61,688 bases of DNA from a virus (Duplodnaviria > Caudoviricetes): the IMG/VR virus record IMGVR_UViG_3300042520_002382, positions 1 to 61,688 of that record, one strand, 5' to 3'. Each line of letters begins with the position of its first letter. Positions within the stretch are counted from its first letter, which is position 1. The notes beneath the pieces were generated by a model. It saw only the letters and a list, made by a program, of their open reading frames with translations, did no database searches and was not told where the DNA came from. The translations under genes were made by a program, and so were the position numbers. Shown here piece after piece: positions 23,235 to 59,232 of the stretch.

Positions 23235-23306
23235 ATCGCTTTGAAGTTCTCCCGGCAGCAGTGTAGATCAGGATAGGGACGCTGCCCAGGGCTTCGACTG
23301 TGATGA

Positions 23307-23768
23307 TCAGAGTTCGGCGAACTCGGCATCGGGCGCTGCCGCCTCAGGCTCGGGCTCAGAGGCAGGCGCCTCGGGCTCGGCTGGTGCTTCGGGCGCAGGC
23401 TCGATCACCTCGGGCTCGGGGATTGCCACGGAATCCAGGATCGCCGTGATGGCGGCGTCCTCGGCGGCATCCTCGGCGGCCAGGCCTTGCAGCTCGACCA
23501 CCTGGGCGGCGGCAGCGTCGGCGGCTTCGCGGGCAGCGGTGGCGTCGGCCTGGGCTGCGGCGATGGCTTCATCATCGGCAGAGTCGTCAGCGAGGGCAGC
23601 GGCCAGAGCCTCCTTGGTGGCGGCCAGCTCGGCCTTCAGCCTGGCCTGCTCGGACTGCAGGAACTGGACAACTGCAGCTACGCGATTGGCAAGAGTTGAC
23701 ATTTTTCTGAGAAGAAGGTGGATTTTGCGGTCCATACGAGTGATGAACCGGAAAAAGGCAAAGTCCAT
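23307..23768 (-). CDS. Ala-rich acidic coiled-coil protein (alternative start 23702)
   Basis: Track ORF followed by a terminator. Confidence 0.65.
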   Translation of the reverse strand: MDFAFFRFITRMDRKIHLLLRKMSTLANRVAAVVQFLQSEQARLKAELAATKEALAAALADDSADDEAIAAAQADATAAREAADAAAAQVVELQGLAAEDAAEDAAITAILDSVAIPEPEVIEPAPEAPAEPEAPASEPEPEAAAPDAEFAEL

Positions 23769-23854
23769 GTTGGGACCGAAGGCAGCGCGGATTGCAATGC
23801 CACACCTACCCTAGCCACCGTGTCTGGATACGGACAAGGGCTAGGGTTAAGAAT

Positions 23855-24048
23855 GGTTTTCAGGGGGCATGCGTTTTGGTCAAGACAAGCACGCTGCGCC
23901 ATCACAGCATCAGGCTTCGCACCGGCCCGGCTGGGGTAACCTCCAAGGGTCCGGGTCGGCCTGAATACAACACCAGTCCCTGACTGGGAATTAGGGCAGG
24001 GGTGGGGGGTTCGCTAGGGCCCTCCTGAAACCCCATGCAACGGCCCGG
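23855..24048 (+). ncRNA. Candidate structured RNA, C4/CI-antisense-like
   Basis: Several stems visible by eye; loops complementary to a target at 24112-24126. Confidence 0.5.
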
Positions 24049-24150
24049 CGTAAACATTGCTTGACAAAACGCAGGCAGATAGTCCTACGCTTTGTGCACC
24101 TTGGCAGGCATGTCAGGGCCCCTAGCTGCCCGCCCCGAGCGGGACAACCC

Positions 24151-24786
24151 ATGAAGAACGCGAACTGCGGCCCAGCTCTGCTGTCGGTCGGCATCGAGGC
24201 CCGCGAGTGGAACGGCTGCGCAATTCAACGCCGCCAGGCGGATGGCTTTGTGAACGCCACGGCCATGTGCCGGGCGGGCGGGAAGCGGTGGAACCACTAC
24301 GCCAGCAACGAGCGCACCTTTGAGTATCTGCAAGCCCTTTCGGGGTCTGCCGGGATTCCGGCCGACCTGTTGGTGACCTCCATCGCCACCGGCCCGAACC
24401 ACCTCCGGGGCACCTGGATCCATCACCGCCTGGCGGTGGACCTGGCCCGTTGGATCTCCCCCGCCTTTGCGGTATGGATGGATGGCTGGTTTCTGGAGGC
24501 CATGGGCGTGGCGATCCCTGCTCCTGCTCCCCAGCCGCCCGCGCCGCGACGGGCCCCAGCGCCTCGCGGTCCCAACCAGGATCCGCTCCAGCTCGCGGCC
24601 AGCATGCTCCCGGCCCTGATCGCTCAGCGGTGGATCGGCGACCCCGAGGCCAACGATCTGATTCGGGGCATCGCTCAGCACCTCCTCCTGTCCTGCGACC
24701 CCCTGCCGGCCGTGGCCAAAGTGGAAGGGGAGGCGCTGGCCTGGCGTCGGGCCCTGATGGCACGGACGGGGCAGCCAACCTGGTGA
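24151..24786 (+). CDS. KilA-N domain protein (antirepressor-like)
   Basis: IQRRQADGFVNATAMC..GKRWNHY..GTWIH..LAVDLARWISPAFAVWM. Confidence 0.88.
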   Translation: MKNANCGPALLSVGIEAREWNGCAIQRRQADGFVNATAMCRAGGKRWNHYASNERTFEYLQALSGSAGIPADLLVTSIATGPNHLRGTWIHHRLAVDLARWISPAFAVWMDGWFLEAMGVAIPAPAPQPPAPRRAPAPRGPNQDPLQLAASMLPALIAQRWIGDPEANDLIRGIAQHLLLSCDPLPAVAKVEGEALAWRRALMARTGQPTW

Positions 24787-25205: not shown

Positions 25206-25523
25206 TCAAGCGGCATCGGGATCCCCCACGATCATCCGGCGGAGCGTGGCCAAGGCGATGGCGTTGCTGCCGCCTTCCTTGACGCCTTCGCTCACCAGCG
25301 AAATCAGCAGCAGGGTTCGCTGTCGCTCCAGCTCCCTGCCCTGCCTGATCGCCTCCTCTCGATCGGCCTCGCTGCGCCGTGCTGCATCGCCGTAGGCCGT
25401 TTCCATGGCCTCAGCGCAGCTCTGCCTGATCGCTGCCACTTCGGCCGCCTCGGCAGTCATGGCCTCCATCTCCTGCTGCAGGGCGTCAAGCTGCTGACGC
25501 ACGAGATCCAGGACCGCGCTCAT
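25206..25523 (-). CDS. Hypothetical coiled-coil protein
   Basis: Coupled to the endolysin stop. Confidence 0.6.
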   Translation of the reverse strand: MSAVLDLVRQQLDALQQEMEAMTAEAAEVAAIRQSCAEAMETAYGDAARRSEADREEAIRQGRELERQRTLLLISLVSEGVKEGGSNAIALATLRRMIVGDPDAA

Positions 25524-26587
25524 GCGGCCTCCTGCAGCACGCTGATCCAGACCGTTCCCAGACCCAGCAGGGGCAGGATCCGATCGCGCAGATCCTGGTT
25601 GTGGAGGCGGATGCAGCCCCGTGTCGGGTGGAGCGCCTGCCGTGGACTCCAGGCCCCCGGCCAGCCGCAGGCCGATCCGCCGCCATGAACCATGATCCCG
25701 TCCCGGTACGGCTTGCTGGTGGGCCCCTCCTGCCCCTCCAGCCCCTCCAGGTCAAACGAATACCAGCCGTAGGCCCGGCGGTCGGGGGTGAAGTTCGCGG
25801 CCCGATCCTGCTCATAGTCCCGGTGGACCTTGCCGATCCGGTAGAGCCCCGGTGGGGTGTCGGTGCCGGTGCGGTTCCACTCGGCCTCCCTGCCCTGCCC
25901 CCGGCAGAGGCAGGGGATCCGCCACACCCGGCGCCCATCGTGAGTCCAGGCCGTGAGGGTCTCGTTCACGTCGTTGGCGATCAGGTGGTGATCACCGGGC
26001 TTGAGGGTGGGGCGGAGCTTGGGGCCCACCATCCCCGGCGGCCAGGTCGGCGGGCCCTCGGGGGCAGGGCCGCCAGGCGGGCGTGGTGGCGTGGCTGTCG
26101 TGACAGGGGCGGGAGCACCCGCACCGAACAGGGCCACCTCTGCGGCACGACGCCGGGACAGGCCTTCCATCACCTCGTCGCCGGCCTTGTTCCAGCGGGG
26201 CAGCTCCGCTTTCACCACTACCGCCGGATCCTCGCCGGCCAGCAACCGCCGCCGCAGGGTGGAGCGCTCCAAGGCGCCGGCCCCCACGTTGAACACAAAC
26301 GAGATCAGGGCCGCCTGCCGCTTCGGGGTCCAACCTGCGGCCATCGGCAACAGCCGGAACACATCCGACGCAGCGCGGTTCAAGTCGGTCCGCAGGAGGT
26401 GGTCGGCGTGAGCCTGGCCGATCGTGCAGCCGGGGGTCACATCGGGCCCGGTGTGGCCGTAGCCAACCGTCCAGGGATCGCCGCCGCTGCCGGGGTCGGG
26501 GTAGGCGGTGAGCCGGCAGCCTTCAAATTCGGCAACGATCCGCCGGGCCGGGGCCAGCCACTGGGGATCGGATGGGTTGGTGCTCAT
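25520..26587 (-). CDS. Endolysin: GH24 lysozyme fused to a YkuD/L,D-transpeptidase-like domain
   Basis: FEGCRLTAYPD..WTVGYGHTG and GLSRRRAAE; C-terminal DTPPGLY, GIMVHGG, TRGCIRL; start 26587 or 26599. Confidence 0.85.
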   Translation of the reverse strand: MSTNPSDPQWLAPARRIVAEFEGCRLTAYPDPGSGGDPWTVGYGHTGPDVTPGCTIGQAHADHLLRTDLNRAASDVFRLLPMAAGWTPKRQAALISFVFNVGAGALERSTLRRRLLAGEDPAVVVKAELPRWNKAGDEVMEGLSRRRAAEVALFGAGAPAPVTTATPPRPPGGPAPEGPPTWPPGMVGPKLRPTLKPGDHHLIANDVNETLTAWTHDGRRVWRIPCLCRGQGREAEWNRTGTDTPPGLYRIGKVHRDYEQDRAANFTPDRRAYGWYSFDLEGLEGQEGPTSKPYRDGIMVHGGGSACGWPGAWSPRQALHPTRGCIRLHNQDLRDRILPLLGLGTVWISVLQEAA

Positions 26588-26741
26588 CAGAGGGGCCATC
26601 GGGAAACAACACGCCAGCCCCTGATCCACAGCAGCGCCACCGTGATGGCCACGCGCCATGGAGGCACGTCAACGACCAGCGGGCGCCCGTCTTGACCCTG
26701 CGGGGTGGGCCCCTCACAGATCAGGCGCACGAGCCCGCAGG

Positions 26742-45981: not shown

Positions 45982-46264
45982 GGCTTGCCGCAAGGGCAAG
46001 TGATGCGCGGCCGATGCACCACCGCCAAGAAGTCAAGTGGTGACAGGCTTTGTACTACGACATCCGCGAGATTGACGAGGATTTGTATCTTGCCGTCCTG
46101 GCCTGCCGTTTGGCCCAAAATGCAAGCCCTGACAGCGGTTTGAGCGGTGCTGCGCCCTTGCCGACAGTGACAGGAAGGGACTGAAAGGGACTGGAAAGAC
46201 GTACCTTATGCACGGCCCGTGCATCGGCTGCAGGCCCGCTCCCCGTCCGCGTCGTATTCCGTCC

Positions 46265-47275
46265 ATGGCCTCGATCAACGTCCAGCGCGGGCGGCTCTAC
46301 CTGCTGGCCAAGCTGCCGCGGCGTGATGGGGCCCCAGGGCTGCAGCAGGCCCGCATCGCTCTGCGGATGGACGACACCCCGATCAACCGCCGAGCAGCCG
46401 CGAAGCAGCTCCAGACTCTGGAGCGGCAGTTGGATGGCGGCACCTTTGAATGGGCCTACTGGCTTGATCAGGCAGCAGGGGCGATCACATGGCGCGAGGC
46501 CATCGCCAGGCTCTACCGGGCGCGGGTGGTGCTCGGGCGAACGGGGGAATCAACCTGGCAGGTGAACTACCTCGGGCGCCTGCGGCAGGTTCCACAGGGG
46601 AGCGCCTGCACGACCGCCAGCATGGCCAAGGCACTGGAGCGCTACGACCGGGCCACCTGCTCATACAAGGAGCTTTACTACCTGCTGCGGCATCTGGCCA
46701 AGTTGGTGGCGGTGCCGTTCCCGGAGGTGCCATTGCCCACCTACAGCCAAGCGGAGTTGGTGGCGGTGCCCACTGACGAGCAGATCATCGCGTGGGTCGG
46801 TGGGGCGCCGGATCCGGTGCGGTGGTACTGGGGAATGATGGCCACCTACGGCCTGCGGCCCCACGAGATCGAGGGGGCGGTGCTGATCGAGCGCGATCTG
46901 TGCCAGGTGGCAGACGCGACAAAAACGGGATTCAGGACTGTGGTGCCGTTACCCCGCGAGTGGGTCGAGCGGTTCGGGTTGCGTGATCGGCGCTTGCGGC
47001 CACGGCTGGGGGGCAGCGTTGATCGGCCGGATGCGGTGAGCAAGTGGCTCAGCAAAGAACTGCGGCGGCAGGGGCTGCCTTGGCGTCCCTACTCCCTGCG
47101 CCATGCTTTTGGCGGCAGGCTATGGCGGGAAGGTGGTAGTCGGCTGGATGTTTACACTGCGGCGAGATTGATGGGTCACACTCCGGCAGTTCACGCTCGC
47201 ACGTACCGCGCTCACATCCAGCCGCACCAGGTAGCGGAGGCGGCAGAGCGGGCGCTAGGGGGTGGGTTTTCGTGA
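46265..47275 (+). CDS. int: Tyrosine integrase
   Basis: YGLRPHE, TKTG, YSLRH, LMGHT..H..TY catalytic set. Confidence 0.92.
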   Translation: MASINVQRGRLYLLAKLPRRDGAPGLQQARIALRMDDTPINRRAAAKQLQTLERQLDGGTFEWAYWLDQAAGAITWREAIARLYRARVVLGRTGESTWQVNYLGRLRQVPQGSACTTASMAKALERYDRATCSYKELYYLLRHLAKLVAVPFPEVPLPTYSQAELVAVPTDEQIIAWVGGAPDPVRWYWGMMATYGLRPHEIEGAVLIERDLCQVADATKTGFRTVVPLPREWVERFGLRDRRLRPRLGGSVDRPDAVSKWLSKELRRQGLPWRPYSLRHAFGGRLWREGGSRLDVYTAARLMGHTPAVHARTYRAHIQPHQVAEAAERALGGGFS

Positions 47276-54490: not shown

Positions 54491-54904
54491 TCAGTCGTCG
54501 GCTTCACCTGTGGCCTCAGCGGTTCCGGCCGGCACCAGCCGGATTCCCTTGCGGCTGAGCTTGATCTCAAACTCGTCGCCGGGCTTGAGGTCGAGCAGGG
54601 CGGTGTAGGCGTGGCCCACCATCAGGTTGCCATTGAACTGCACCTTGGTGTTGAAACTCAGCTTGCGGCCAGGCTTGCCCTTGCCGTCACTGCTGCCGCC
54701 GGCGCCGAAGGTGGTGCCCTTAGCCCCCAGCAGGGCCTCGTAGAAGGCGGTGAAGTTCAAGCGCTCCGTGCCGTCCTTCTTGGTGCTGACGTAGCCGCAG
54801 CCACGGACCAGATCGTTCTTGGAGGCATCGCCAAGCTCCTTCACCTTGGCCAGGAGATCGGCGCCGGCGAGAGGGGTGGCGGGCGCTGTTGAGGTTGCTG
54901 TCAT
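54491..54904 (-). CDS. Cyanobacterial AbrB-like regulator (cyAbrB family)
   Basis: LLAKVKEL...LVRGCGY..RLNFTAFYEALL.AKG...GRKLSF.TKVQFNGNLMVG.AY...PGDEFEIKL. Confidence 0.88.
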   Translation of the reverse strand: MTATSTAPATPLAGADLLAKVKELGDASKNDLVRGCGYVSTKKDGTERLNFTAFYEALLGAKGTTFGAGGSSDGKGKPGRKLSFNTKVQFNGNLMVGHAYTALLDLKPGDEFEIKLSRKGIRLVPAGTAEATGEADD

Positions 54905-55168
54905 TGCGGAATCAGATTGCACAAGCAATACCAATCCTAGTCCGCACTGGGGTGATATGCAATCGCAGACGGGTCTTTGGGGTCGTCTTCGCCAGCCGCC
55001 ATGGCCTCAATCCGCTCCAGCTCTTCCAGCAACGGCACCAGGGGCGCCACGAGGGGCCATAGATCCAGTTCGATCTCCACCGGCGCATCCGCAAGCGATC
55101 CCGCAGTGTGCGGCCCCTGCTGGATGCGTGGAAGGGTTGCGGCGGATCAGCGACGGGATGGCGGAGCG

Positions 55169-57389: not shown

Positions 57390-58111
57390 GGATTCACCCC
57401 TTGGCCAGCCCGAAGACCCCGGACGACGGCGCCGATGGGCACCACGTCAACCGCCGGCGTGGCTTGCAGTAGACCCGCCCTGGCCTGCCCCAGCATCTCG
57501 GCAGCTTGCTTGGGGTTGCGCAAAATCCAGGCGCTGGCTGGGGTATCGGCTTTCAGCGGCCAGAATCCTTGCAGCGCTTTGCCAAACGAAAAGAAGCCCC
57601 ACGCCATCTCCCGCGGCCCCCAGGTGCGGCCATCCATGCCACCGGCCCAGATGCGCTGCATCTCTTCGGCGACCTGCTCAACGTGGGCCTGGGACTCCTC
57701 GGGGCTCAGCTTACTGGGGTGCCACGGCCGATCGCCACCCGGGAGCCTCAGCCGCCCTGGAGGCGGGACCTGTTCATGCCGCACCGGTGCCGGCTCGTGA
57801 AAGTGATCAGGTGCCGCCATGCGCTCGGCCAGATCAGCCCGCAACCGGCGCTCAGTCGCCGGCCGGTCGTTCTCCAGTGGGTAGGCGTAGCGCAGCAGGG
57901 CCAGGTGGGGCGCCAACTCCTTCGGCGGCGCCGGATCCATCAGCCGCTGACCCACGCAGAACCGCAGCACCTCGCCGGTGAGATCCCGCTTTGCGCTGGC
58001 CGGGAACGTGTCCCAGGCCAACACCAGGGCCGCCGGGGTCAGGGGCCGCTGCATCGGCAGGAGCTGCAGCAGGCTCGTGATGGCGGCTTGAAATTCTTCG
58101 AGAGTGATCAC
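57380..58111 (-). CDS. Replication accessory protein (helicase-loader position)
   Basis: Coupled downstream of the initiator; function from position only. Confidence 0.45.
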   Translation of the reverse strand: MITLEEFQAAITSLLQLLPMQRPLTPAALVLAWDTFPASAKRDLTGEVLRFCVGQRLMDPAPPKELAPHLALLRYAYPLENDRPATERRLRADLAERMAAPDHFHEPAPVRHEQVPPPGRLRLPGGDRPWHPSKLSPEESQAHVEQVAEEMQRIWAGGMDGRTWGPREMAWGFFSFGKALQGFWPLKADTPASAWILRNPKQAAEMLGQARAGLLQATPAVDVVPIGAVVRGLRAGQGVNPWR

Positions 58112-59232
58112 GCGAGCACCTCCACCAGCACGGCCTGTTGCGTGGTGGTCGCTGCCGCGGCGGCGGCTGCCTTGGCATCACGGGCGCGGATGTAGGCAAT
58201 GGCCTCGGCCGCGGACTCCTCAGGCGTCAGGCGGCCTCGGAAGCCGCTGCCCATCACCGGCGTGGTGGCTTTGGTGCCGTACTGCTGCCAGCGGCCAAAG
58301 TCCAAGCCCAACCAGCCAGGGCCCGACACACGCGCCTCGGTTCCCTCCTCCAACTGCTGCCGCAGGATCTCAGTGCCGCCCTGCGGGTGGTCCTGGATCT
58401 TCCGGGCGTTGGCCAGCATCCGATCCCACGCCCCTTGCGTCCGCCTGCCCTTCGGGTTTCGCGCTGGCCAGAACGCCAGCAGTTCGCGAACCACCGGCAG
58501 CAGCGCCGCCGGAACATCCTCCTGGGCCGGCTTGAACCCAGCCTCCCGCTTCCGAGCCTGCGGCTTGACCGGGGGAACCGCCTCAGGATCTGGCGCCGGC
58601 TCGGGCAGTGGTTCGGGCAGCGGCTTGGGCTGTGGCCTCTGCTGCGGCTGCGGCTGCACGGCGACAAGGGGTTGCGGCTCGGGATCCAAAACCAGGAACC
58701 CATCCCGATCGCGACACGGGCGAGCGGCGACGGCCTCGGGCCGGCGCTCCCCCCGCGCAGTGGGGGGTAAGGGGGGTTCATAGGTTTTCTTCTTCTTGTT
58801 CTTCTTCTCTTGATCTTCTTTATGGGCACCTCCTGCCCTATCCCCATGCACCTCCTGCCCTATCCCTAGGGCACCTCCTGCCCTAGCTAGATAGGGCACC
58901 TCCTGCCCTAGGGCACCTCCTGCCCTATCAACAAGGGCCCACGAAACATCCCAGATCGTCAGCCGATACCGGTTTGCGGCCTTCCTTCCACCTTCCGCAA
59001 AGGCGTGCTCACGAACCAGCCAGCCCTTGCGCTCCATGCCCGCCAAGACACCGCTGACCGACCGCTTGGACATGCAAGCCTCTTGGGCCAGCAGGGTCAT
59101 TGATGGGTGGATGTTTGGCCAGTGGCTCTGAAGGCACCAGAGGATCGCCAGCTCCAGCGGCGTCGCCTGGCCCCTCAGCCAGTTGGGTAGCGCCGTAAAT
59201 GTCGGCTTCTGCCCGATGTACTCGGTTGTCAT
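58108..59232 (-). CDS. Replication initiator with N-terminal wHTH
   Basis: PSMTLLAQEACMSKRSV..L..MERKGWL; internal iterons. Confidence 0.82.
   Translation of the reverse strand: MTTEYIGQKPTFTALPNWLRGQATPLELAILWCLQSHWPNIHPSMTLLAQEACMSKRSVSGVLAGMERKGWLVREHAFAEGGRKAANRYRLTIWDVSWALVDRAGGALGQEVPYLARAGGALGIGQEVHGDRAGGAHKEDQEKKNKKKKTYEPPLPPTARGERRPEAVAARPCRDRDGFLVLDPEPQPLVAVQPQPQQRPQPKPLPEPLPEPAPDPEAVPPVKPQARKREAGFKPAQEDVPAALLPVVRELLAFWPARNPKGRRTQGAWDRMLANARKIQDHPQGGTEILRQQLEEGTEARVSGPGWLGLDFGRWQQYGTKATTPVMGSGFRGRLTPEESAAEAIAYIRARDAKAAAAAAATTTQQAVLVEVLA
58826..58927. repeat. Five 15-bp iterons (putative origin)
   Basis: GCACCTCCTGCCCTA at 58826, 58848, 58871, 58896, 58913, next to a T-rich pyrimidine tract at about 58785-58820. 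Confidence 0.85.

Follow-up and report, generated by a model that had tools for sequence, protein, structure and literature searches.

A C4-like antisense RNA predicted upstream of the kilA-N gene of a cyanophage-like virus

Cyanophage lysogeny and the regulation of switch genes are poorly understood, and the viral record IMGVR_UViG_3300042520_002382 of the IMG/VR collection, whose whole stretch of 61,688 nucleotides (nt) is called the window here, raises the question of how a phage of this kind may control its kilA-N gene. From complementary words in the non-coding spacer in front of this gene, a first-pass annotation had proposed an antisense RNA switch like the C4 RNA of phages P1 and P7 or the CI RNA of phage P4, with two contacts between RNA loops and the kilA-N leader. 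The words themselves are all present: a hairpin CCAGT-CCCTG-ACTGG (23973-23987), a loop word TCGCTAGG (24011-24018), and the putative targets GTCAGGG (24112-24118) and CCTAGC (24121-24126), which are flanked by GGCAG and CTGCC and followed by an ATG at 24151. The gene that starts there is of the KilA-N type as claimed (Pfam PF04383, 74.3 bits, E 8.5e-21, residues 25-115 of 211, cut-off 23.8 bits; PHROG 129 “transcriptional regulator”, E 9.4e-21). The answer reached by comparing related loci is that an RNA of ~100 nt, transcribed from its own promoter, probably pairs with the kilA-N leader at two sites and represses KilA-N, a reading to which a probability of roughly three in four is attached. 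As far as comparative analysis can tell, the earlier observation is real and its central idea right; to be corrected are one of the two contacts, the fold of the target, the membership in the Rfam C4 family, which is not found, and the descent of the RNA, which is distantly related to sRNA-Xcc1.

A search with the KilA-N protein yielded 80 related viral loci. The non-coding sequence 23884-24150 is ~80% identical in loci whose KilA-N proteins are merely 62-77% identical, and its core (23951-24049) reaches more distant loci, with blastn matches in 22 of the 80. A covariance model built from 12 sequences, R1, describes a three-way junction that consists of a closing stem (P1), hairpin 1 (P2 and P3), a two-tiered hairpin 2 (P4 and P5) with a large loop, and a single-stranded 3' junction strand (coordinates in Table 1). 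Over the whole structure 97.3% of cells are paired, a value that none of 500 shuffles reached (RNAalifold, pair counts). The (+) strand folds with -53.4 kcal/mol (z -3.48; 1 of 200 shuffles as good), the (-) strand with -35.7 kcal/mol (z +0.72), and the frequent G-U pairs occur on the (+) strand only, as they would be A-C on the opposite one; both the G-U pairs and the asymmetry of the fold indicate that the RNA is read from the (+) strand. Of the alternative long stems listed earlier, 23951-59 / 24041-48 proved real and closes the RNA, and the sequence involved in the other (23855-68 / 24019-32) aligns only in the two closest relatives. The word TCGCTAGG sits within a genuine hairpin loop, on top of a P5 stem with compensatory pairs. 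An internal loop on the 3' side of hairpin 2, CUGAAAC (24026-24031 in the window; variants CUGCAAC, CUGGAAC and CUGUAAC), is nearly invariant throughout the family; the model leaves it unpaired, and protein binding or a tertiary contact is a possible role.

With R1, the window and 66 of the 80 KilA-N loci give 68 matches, all upstream of KilA-N and on the same strand as the gene. A second sampling made no use of KilA-N: a motif scan of the viral collection returned 96 stretches, and R1 found 74 matches in the 79 new loci searched. Together, 144 R1 matches reduce to 82 distinct sequences. Thirty distinct items lie beyond the KilA-N search; KilA-N is found at most 1.5 kb downstream of 18, seven have at least 900 nt of downstream sequence without it, and five are too short to tell. 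Two sub-types are present: P3 is confined to a long type (25 of the 82 distinct members), and the other 57, the short type, carry a GNRA-capped hairpin instead.

The contact between the loop of hairpin 2 (segment b') and the single-stranded leader segment b2 is the one part of the originally proposed pairing that is strongly supported. In a 14-sequence alignment, none of the seven pairs of this helix is invariant, five have changed on both sides and 91.6% of cells are paired, compared to 34-55% in slid controls. The loop is hypervariable, with 62 distinct cores among the 82 distinct members. Across the family, 33 of 48 RNAs find 6 nt or more complementary to their loop at a distance of 46-105 nt downstream, compared to 297 of 2240 non-cognate combinations.

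The loop of hairpin 1 fares differently. Its proposed contact, CCCTGAC with GTCAGGG, does not covary: its score is equalled or exceeded in 418 of 500 shuffles, and 9 of 12 distinct sequences disrupt the sixth pair, A-U. The GGCAG/CTGCC stem, in which the targets had been placed, is not kept among relatives, being broken without compensation in L002, L007, L012, L014 and L016; the conserved fold pairs CCUUGGCA (24099-24106) with UGUCAGGG (24111-24118) in a hairpin termed Ha. GTCAGGG thus is a stem strand within this hairpin and no free target. The exact model of the first-pass annotation, in which the loop CCCUG and loop 2 kiss GUCAGGG and CCUAGC held in a GGCAG/CUGCC stem-loop, could draw on a 7-nt complement in the window and in L002 and on a CCCUG/CAGGG match kept in 10-11 of 12 close relatives. 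However, loop 1 reads CCACG in L013 and is replaced by a GCAA tetraloop in L016 and L018, its hairpin is missing from the 57 short-type members, and the presumed target is the 3' strand of Ha, all of which makes this model highly improbable. The idea of a C4-like antisense RNA with two leader contacts stands, with one contact exchanged.

The second contact, absent from the first-pass annotation, is made by the junction strand. Its segment a' (CAUGC, of which the first base is the last of P4) is complementary to the region of the apical tetraloop of Ha (a2, GCAUG). Of 79 eligible members, six are without a G-tetraloop hairpin with a stem of at least 5 bp; the test set comprises the 66 in which such a hairpin is followed within 24 nt by a loop complement of at least 5 nt. 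As Ha was chosen by the neighbouring b2 and not by the junction, the test is independent of the latter. In register, the first two junction positions pair in 65 of the 66 (non-cognate 2196/4290), and all three pair in 47 (760/4290). Six classes of junction and tetraloop correspond one-to-one, namely UCG/GCGA (19 members), CUG/GCAG (16), CCG/GAGG (14), UCC/GGGA (10), UCG/GAGA (3) and UGC/GGCA (2), plus two odd cases. Both contacts are thus demonstrated by covariation, at the level of sequence. A looser rule for the hairpin, under which all three positions pair in 29/74 and the first two in 42/74, picked wrong registers and was replaced by the strict one; loops read from single-sequence folds were likewise in wrong registers, and fixed offsets were used instead.

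The spacers of the window and L004 are 89.5% identical, yet both of their address segments (b' and a') differ, and an identical loop core is found with different junction classes. Both addresses being hypervariable and changing with their targets, the RNA of each phage should recognise its own leader only, as in the heteroimmunity of P1 and P7; the diversification suggests a discrimination between related phages. Further target copies upstream of the RNA are not enriched: cognate words precede it in 8 of 65 cases and non-cognate ones in 363 of 4134. An 8-bp inverted repeat, CCCTAGCC ... GGCTAGGG (23809-23816 / 23839-23846), bears the window's own b2 and b' heptamers, which occur merely five and four times, respectively, across the whole window. 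It is the same in L004, which has other addresses, and carries a G-U-compatible change in L002, so that it does not covary with the addresses.

Two promoter-like elements frame the arrangement. A TAnnnT box, TAACCT in the window, ends 6-11 nt before the strand of the closing stem in all 79 of 79 distinct members (0-6/79 in shifted controls), and in 60 of 66 members a second one stops 2-8 nt short of the leader hairpin (control 0/66). The latter belongs to an element between RNA and target, TTGACA and TACGCT in the window, in which TTGAC and the three defined bases of TAnnnT do not vary among 14 aligned relatives. Both conserved boxes are, by their sequence, putative -10 boxes. A terminator-like hairpin lies between the RNA and the kilA-N promoter in 44 of 66 members (39/41 of the short and 5/25 of the long type). 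In several short-type members (L050, L048, L036, L060, L211 and L064), a palindrome of the form GTTGCGGnTCCGCAAC lies ~40-60 nt ahead of the -10 box of the RNA, and after the palindrome comes a second TAnnnT box; these may be an operator and a second promoter, and can be likened to the C1-controlled and constitutive promoters annotated before P1 c4.

The RNA may repress kilA-N in the following manner: it would be transcribed from the promoter with the -10 box TAACCT, and the kilA-N mRNA would start at ~24098 from the inner promoter, with Ha as its 5'-terminal hairpin. Segment b' (GCUAGGG) would pair with b2 (CCCUAGC), and a' (CAUGC) with a2 (GCAUG) in the apical loop of Ha. This pairing is expected to hinder ribosome loading and to lower KilA-N synthesis, possibly also by destabilising the mRNA. 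The RNA would act in trans on transcripts from the inner promoter and possibly in cis on transcripts that read through. A possibly toxic or antirepressor-like kilA-N would in this way be kept silent, for instance in a lysogen; given the integrase-like gene of the window, a role in lysogeny or secondary immunity is plausible from the gene content. Accumulation of the RNA, trans action, repression and the role in immunity we infer from these features.

Several points weigh against this proposal. When 23949-24050 is compared with 24095-24150 in this single sequence, word complementarity alone is at chance level: among 5000 dinucleotide-preserving shuffles, 2912 contain at least one complementary 7-mer and 2216 such a 7-mer together with a separate complementary 6-mer. 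The family counts refer to related sequences and not to independent events, and the Rfam thresholds of both C4 and sRNA-Xcc1 are missed. By the criteria used, 13 of the 79 eligible members have no pair of hairpin and b2, and the third junction position is unpaired in 19 of the 66 tested. The kilA-N promoter has an unusual spacer of 19 nt and is missed by a generic sigma-70 scan. There is no terminator after the RNA in the window, which leaves its 3' end undefined, so that cis action by read-through is not separable from action in trans. Finally, b2 of the window is located at -31 to -25 from the ATG, with the hairpin Hb in between, beyond the usual range for blocking ribosomes, and abuts a Shine-Dalgarno sequence only in other members.

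The first of these points would also suit an explanation in which the words act at the level of the DNA, for example as inverted half-sites of an operator bound by a variable protein, or have arisen by chance, and no functional RNA exists. Complementary words on one strand are inverted repeats in the DNA as well, the statistics of the single sequence are at chance, and the unrelated upstream repeat bears the same heptamers. Complementarity at chance in one sequence is supported as real, however, once relatives are compared: the words lie exactly in the loop and the junction of a fold that compensatory and G-U changes preserve on the (+) strand only, two separate contacts covary, and the upstream repeat is unchanged in L004 despite its other addresses. 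An origin at the DNA level or by chance is scarcely credible.

A purely cis-acting leader deserves more weight. One long transcript from the promoter at 23937-42 would then contain both partners, the contacts would be intramolecular (pseudoknotted) long-range pairings governing translation or read-through, and a free small RNA would not exist. The missing terminator of the window fits this arrangement; bona fide sRNA-Xcc1 genes end merely 26-49 nt before the next start codon, which is too close for a separate promoter; P1 c4 is annotated within the c4 icd ant mRNA; and covariation is blind to the difference between cis and trans. On the other hand, owing to the conserved promoter-like element between RNA and target, many kilA-N transcripts would be without the RNA, and the terminator-like hairpin separates the two in two thirds of the members (44/66). 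The 62 loop cores among 82 members are what intermolecular discrimination predicts and are unneeded for a fixed internal fold. A leader acting in cis alone is therefore considered unlikely.

The sign of regulation might also be the opposite, with pairing to a2 and b2 remodelling the leader, for example by opening Ha or altering Hb, and thereby exposing the ribosome-binding region of kilA-N. In the window's sub-family, 25 nt separate b2 from the ATG, and Hb encloses the purine-rich stretch GAGCGGGA, so that a direct block of ribosomes is not obvious. Yet the pairing leaves Hb untouched, and Hb is absent from most other members; there, b2 ends 8-13 nt before the start codon, next to GGAG-like sequences. 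This position favours repression, as do the complements of sRNA-Xcc1, which overlap AGGAG, and the annotation of P1 C4 as a repressor of translation. Activation appears quite improbable, and repression by the small RNA remains the preferred reading.

Table 1. Features of the RNA, the kilA-N leader and related copies (positions in the window unless a locus is named; assignments are predictions)
Feature	Position	Strand	Basis
Structured small RNA, three-way junction, ~100 nt	23949..24050	+	model R1, 120.7 bits, single match in window
Own -10 box of the RNA, TAACCT; transcript start predicted at ~23949-23950	23937..23942	+	conserved TAnnnT
Closing stem P1	23951-57 / 24042-48	+	consensus fold, pair counts
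Hairpin 1, P2	23959-62 / 23994-97	+	consensus fold
Hairpin 1, P3 (“loop 1” hairpin of the first-pass annotation)	23973-78 / 23982-87	+	consensus fold
Hairpin 2 (two-tiered), P4	23999-24003 / 24030-34	+	consensus fold
Hairpin 2 (two-tiered), P5 (GGGGGG/CCCTCC)	24004-09 / 24020-25	+	compensatory pairs
Hairpin-2 loop, 10 nt; antisense segment b' (core GCUAGGG, 24013-24019)	24010..24019	+	hypervariable, complementary to leader
Antisense segment a' (CAUGC): last P4 base and start of 3' junction strand	24034..24038	+	in-register pairing with leader tetraloop
Single-stranded 3' junction strand	24035-24041	+	consensus fold
kilA-N promoter-like element, TTGACA 24061-66 and TACGCT 24086-91; predicted start ~24098	24061..24091	+	conserved bases
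Leader hairpin Ha (CCUUGGCA-GGCA-UGUCAGGG); target a2 = GCAUG, 24108-24112	24099..24118	+	RNAalifold, one compensatory pair; single-sequence fold
Target b2 (CCCUAGC), single-stranded linker between Ha and Hb	24120..24126	+	covaries with hairpin-2 loop; unpaired in leader fold
Hairpin Hb (CCCGC-CCCGA-GCGGG) between b2 and start codon; sub-family specific	24129..24143	+	conserved, one G-U variant
kilA-N gene (211 aa), proposed regulated gene	24151..24786	+	Pfam KilA-N; PHROG 129
Two copies of the RNA on one contig	L063 2569-2657, 2692-2780; L226 100-186, 3300-3388; L256 2991-3079, 3114-3202		

Beyond metagenomic records, a member (87.4 bits) is found in the cultured Synechococcus phage S-SRP02 (L318 2288-2388), between the integrase and KilA-N genes; its Ha tetraloop GCGA fits the junction UCG, and its b2, CTTGGA, lies 10 nt before the KilA-N start. 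With blastn against isolate phages, only the coding part of the S-SRP02 KilA-N gene was matched, and the RNA was found by R1 alone. The S-SRP02 record annotates the integrase beside the RNA and not the RNA itself, and the accessible text of the S-SRP02 paper does not mention a small or non-coding RNA. A motif scan of bacterial genomes gave mostly chance matches in high-GC genomes; among the matches listed, R1 confirmed 2 of 80 loci (L098 and L108), the latter a contig of a Synechococcaceae metagenome-assembled genome. At gathering scores, Rfam returned nothing in the whole window, and in 20 related loci only an unrelated abiF RNA (RF03085, 56.4 bits; L043 4974-5010), ~2 kb downstream of the KilA-N match. 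On some viral contigs two RNA copies with differing loops are present, in tandem or a few kb apart (Table 1), resembling the five tandem sRNA-Xcc1 homologues reported in Xylella. In many relatives (L055 2198-2389; L052, L043, L048, L064 and L025) the first open reading frame (ORF) after the target is a conserved one of ~62 aa (MKTCLPSPAWDRGPFA..ALWELGYPNDFDT..) without a Pfam match, and KilA-N follows 280-450 nt later; this small ORF resembles the icd gene between c4 and ant of P1.

The genome around the element, a 61.7-kb viral record with an estimated completeness of 94% and a G+C content of ~65%, encodes a terminase, a portal, a tape measure, an integrase-like protein, RecT and RusA. The terminase is nearest to those of cyanosiphoviruses (34-38% identity), and the integrase-like gene (46208-47275) matches PHROG 1 (E 1.9e-11), with Pfam matches to Phage_integrase and Arm-DNA-bind_2 below their cut-offs. 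From its gene content and terminase, the window looks like a temperate, cyanophage-like siphovirus. On the (-) strand are also an endolysin-like gene (25520-26659), whose product joins domains of phage lysozyme and YkuD L,D-transpeptidase, and two candidate phage regulators in a leftward, early-looking region, namely an AbrB-like one (54491-54934; Pfam E 1.2e-24) and one with a weak MarR match (58108-59232).

Literature searches found no paper on an RNA regulator of a cyanophage KilA-N gene. The 82 distinct members of this RNA family, spread over many freshwater cyanophage-like viruses, offer a readable, two-part address code with the predicted target next door, and the cultured phage-host pair S-SRP02 and Synechococcus sp. 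SR-C1 makes the model directly testable. Naturally orthogonal address pairs could also supply RNA regulators that do not cross-react. A wider interpretation, in which the private two-part addresses form an orthogonal RNA key and lock for each cyanophage lineage, repeatedly swapped and conferring heteroimmunity, and in which this family, sRNA-Xcc1 and C4 belong to one ancient superfamily across phyla, is put forward tentatively, with the odds somewhat against it. If true, freshwater cyanophages that occur together would have RNA-based heteroimmunity, mobile elements would place “self-addressed” antisense cassettes before toxic or switch genes, among them KilA-N, antirepressor and SymE genes, and the so far unexplained sRNA-Xcc1 would be accounted for.

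As to its descent, the RNA is a divergent relative of sRNA-Xcc1 (RF02221). This is the only Rfam family to respond at the element and gives the top match there in each of five records, with 19.1 bits for the window and 14.2, 35.7, 16.5 and 27.2 bits for four relatives; none of these scores reaches the gathering score of 53 bits. Shared are the topology and an internal-loop motif, GAAUACAA..ACC / GGGAAU. In sRNA-Xcc1 the hairpin-1 motif reads AAUACAAuACC ... GGGGAAua around a small inner hairpin, and in the window GAAUACAACACC ... GGGAAUUA; it is absent from the 57 short-type relatives. Unlike in sRNA-Xcc1, there is no CCaCCC tail after the closing stem, where the window continues with CGUAAACAUU, and hairpin 2 is two-tiered, with the conserved CUGAAAC internal loop and a loop of 10 nt, where sRNA-Xcc1 has 6. 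Here the target is found at a distance of 60-80 nt, behind its own promoter, compared to 20-35 nt in sRNA-Xcc1.

sRNA-Xcc1 is known from integron cassettes of Xanthomonas campestris and also from prophages; Northern blot and end mapping defined it as an RNA of 88 nt, according to the accessible text (PMC2996969), and the literature, as far as its available text goes, treats it as a trans-acting RNA with many predicted targets. Partial texts also place it upstream of symE (bioRxiv 10.1101/2025.06.18.660453) and of an ORF6N gene in APSE phages (PMC7313666). In a sample of 151 proteobacterial genomes, 13 matched, nine of them over the cut-off; 13 bona fide genes drawn from this sample were analysed, with two tallied genomes left out. 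In 10 of 13 cases the spacer of 26-49 nt in front of the following gene contains at least 6 nt complementary to the 3' half of the RNA (non-cognate 42/156), and in 9 of 13 at least 7 nt (10/156), the hairpin-2 loop matching the ribosome-binding site (RBS) region of that gene. The best complement ends 3-11 nt ahead of the ATG in 9 of the 10, with another one, to the junction region, directly upstream; the exception is L311, where the top-scoring match, 19 nt from the ATG, is the one to the junction. Ten of the following ORFs were scanned: two encode SymE toxins, one a P22 antirepressor-N and one a KilA-N domain, and the remaining six have no family above the Pfam cut-off, one of them showing a weak sub-cut-off HypA match. 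No description of loop-to-RBS pairing between sRNA-Xcc1 and its adjacent gene was found in the literature covered, which did not include Chen et al. 2011. The loop-to-RBS logic offers a concrete function for an RNA that has been known since 2010 only as “trans-acting”, and ties it mechanistically to the C4 immunity RNA of P1. On one proteobacterial contig, a group II intron domain (RF02001, 138 bits; L299 2210-2374, (-) strand) lies ~1.3 kb from a bona fide sRNA-Xcc1/SymE cassette.

Compared to C4 itself (RF01695), the RNA has the same layout: a closing stem, hairpin 1, hairpin 2 with a large antisense loop (b') and a single-stranded antisense segment (a') at the 3' junction. The order of the targets is shared with P1 as well, a2 preceding b2 shortly before the start of the next gene. 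The P1 record annotates c4, a2, b2 and icd in the immI operon c4-icd-ant; there, the junction CUGUCAA pairs with a2 and the loop UCACUAAC with b2, and C4 carries the annotation of a translational repressor of icd ant. The context is also similar, a phage with an integrase-like gene and an RNA beside a gene of the KilA-N/antirepressor type. No sequence or structure homology between the two RNAs is detectable with the models. The check proposed at the outset, a search with the Rfam models, gave no C4 match at E<=10 in window 23300-24600 or in any of five records (gathering score 45 bits; control on P1, 68.8 bits), and no match of c4-a1b1 (RF03163) at this locus, where upstream a1/b1 target copies are likewise missing; conversely, R1 reaches at best 5.3 bits on P1 and does not find c4. 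Another check, covariation of loops and targets among relatives, came out positively for loop 2 and negatively for loop 1.

The differences from P1 include how the RNA would be made. P1 c4 is cut out of the operon transcript by RNase P processing. For the RNA described here, a conserved -10 box at the foot of the closing stem points instead to a primary 5' end; its target has a predicted promoter of its own, and a terminator-like hairpin follows the RNA in most relatives. P1 and P7 differ in their antisense segments and are heteroimmune, as Citron and Schuster are said to have found in 1990. P4 CI is a small immunity RNA that is processed from a leader, pairs with nearby complementary sites and stops downstream expression by transcription termination at sites in the same operon. 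The hosts differ, too: C4 is listed for Proteobacteria and their phages in the available text (PMC2864571), and the present family for cyanophage-like viruses. A further parallel is the type I toxin-antitoxin pair SymR/SymE, where a small RNA keeps a neighbouring gene with a potentially toxic product from being translated. SymR lies opposite its target, with full complementarity, as the accessible part of its description states (PMC1891008), unlike the RNA described here, which is encoded in tandem and would pair by two short segments. By design, the RNA would work like C4 of P1; by descent, it belongs with sRNA-Xcc1.

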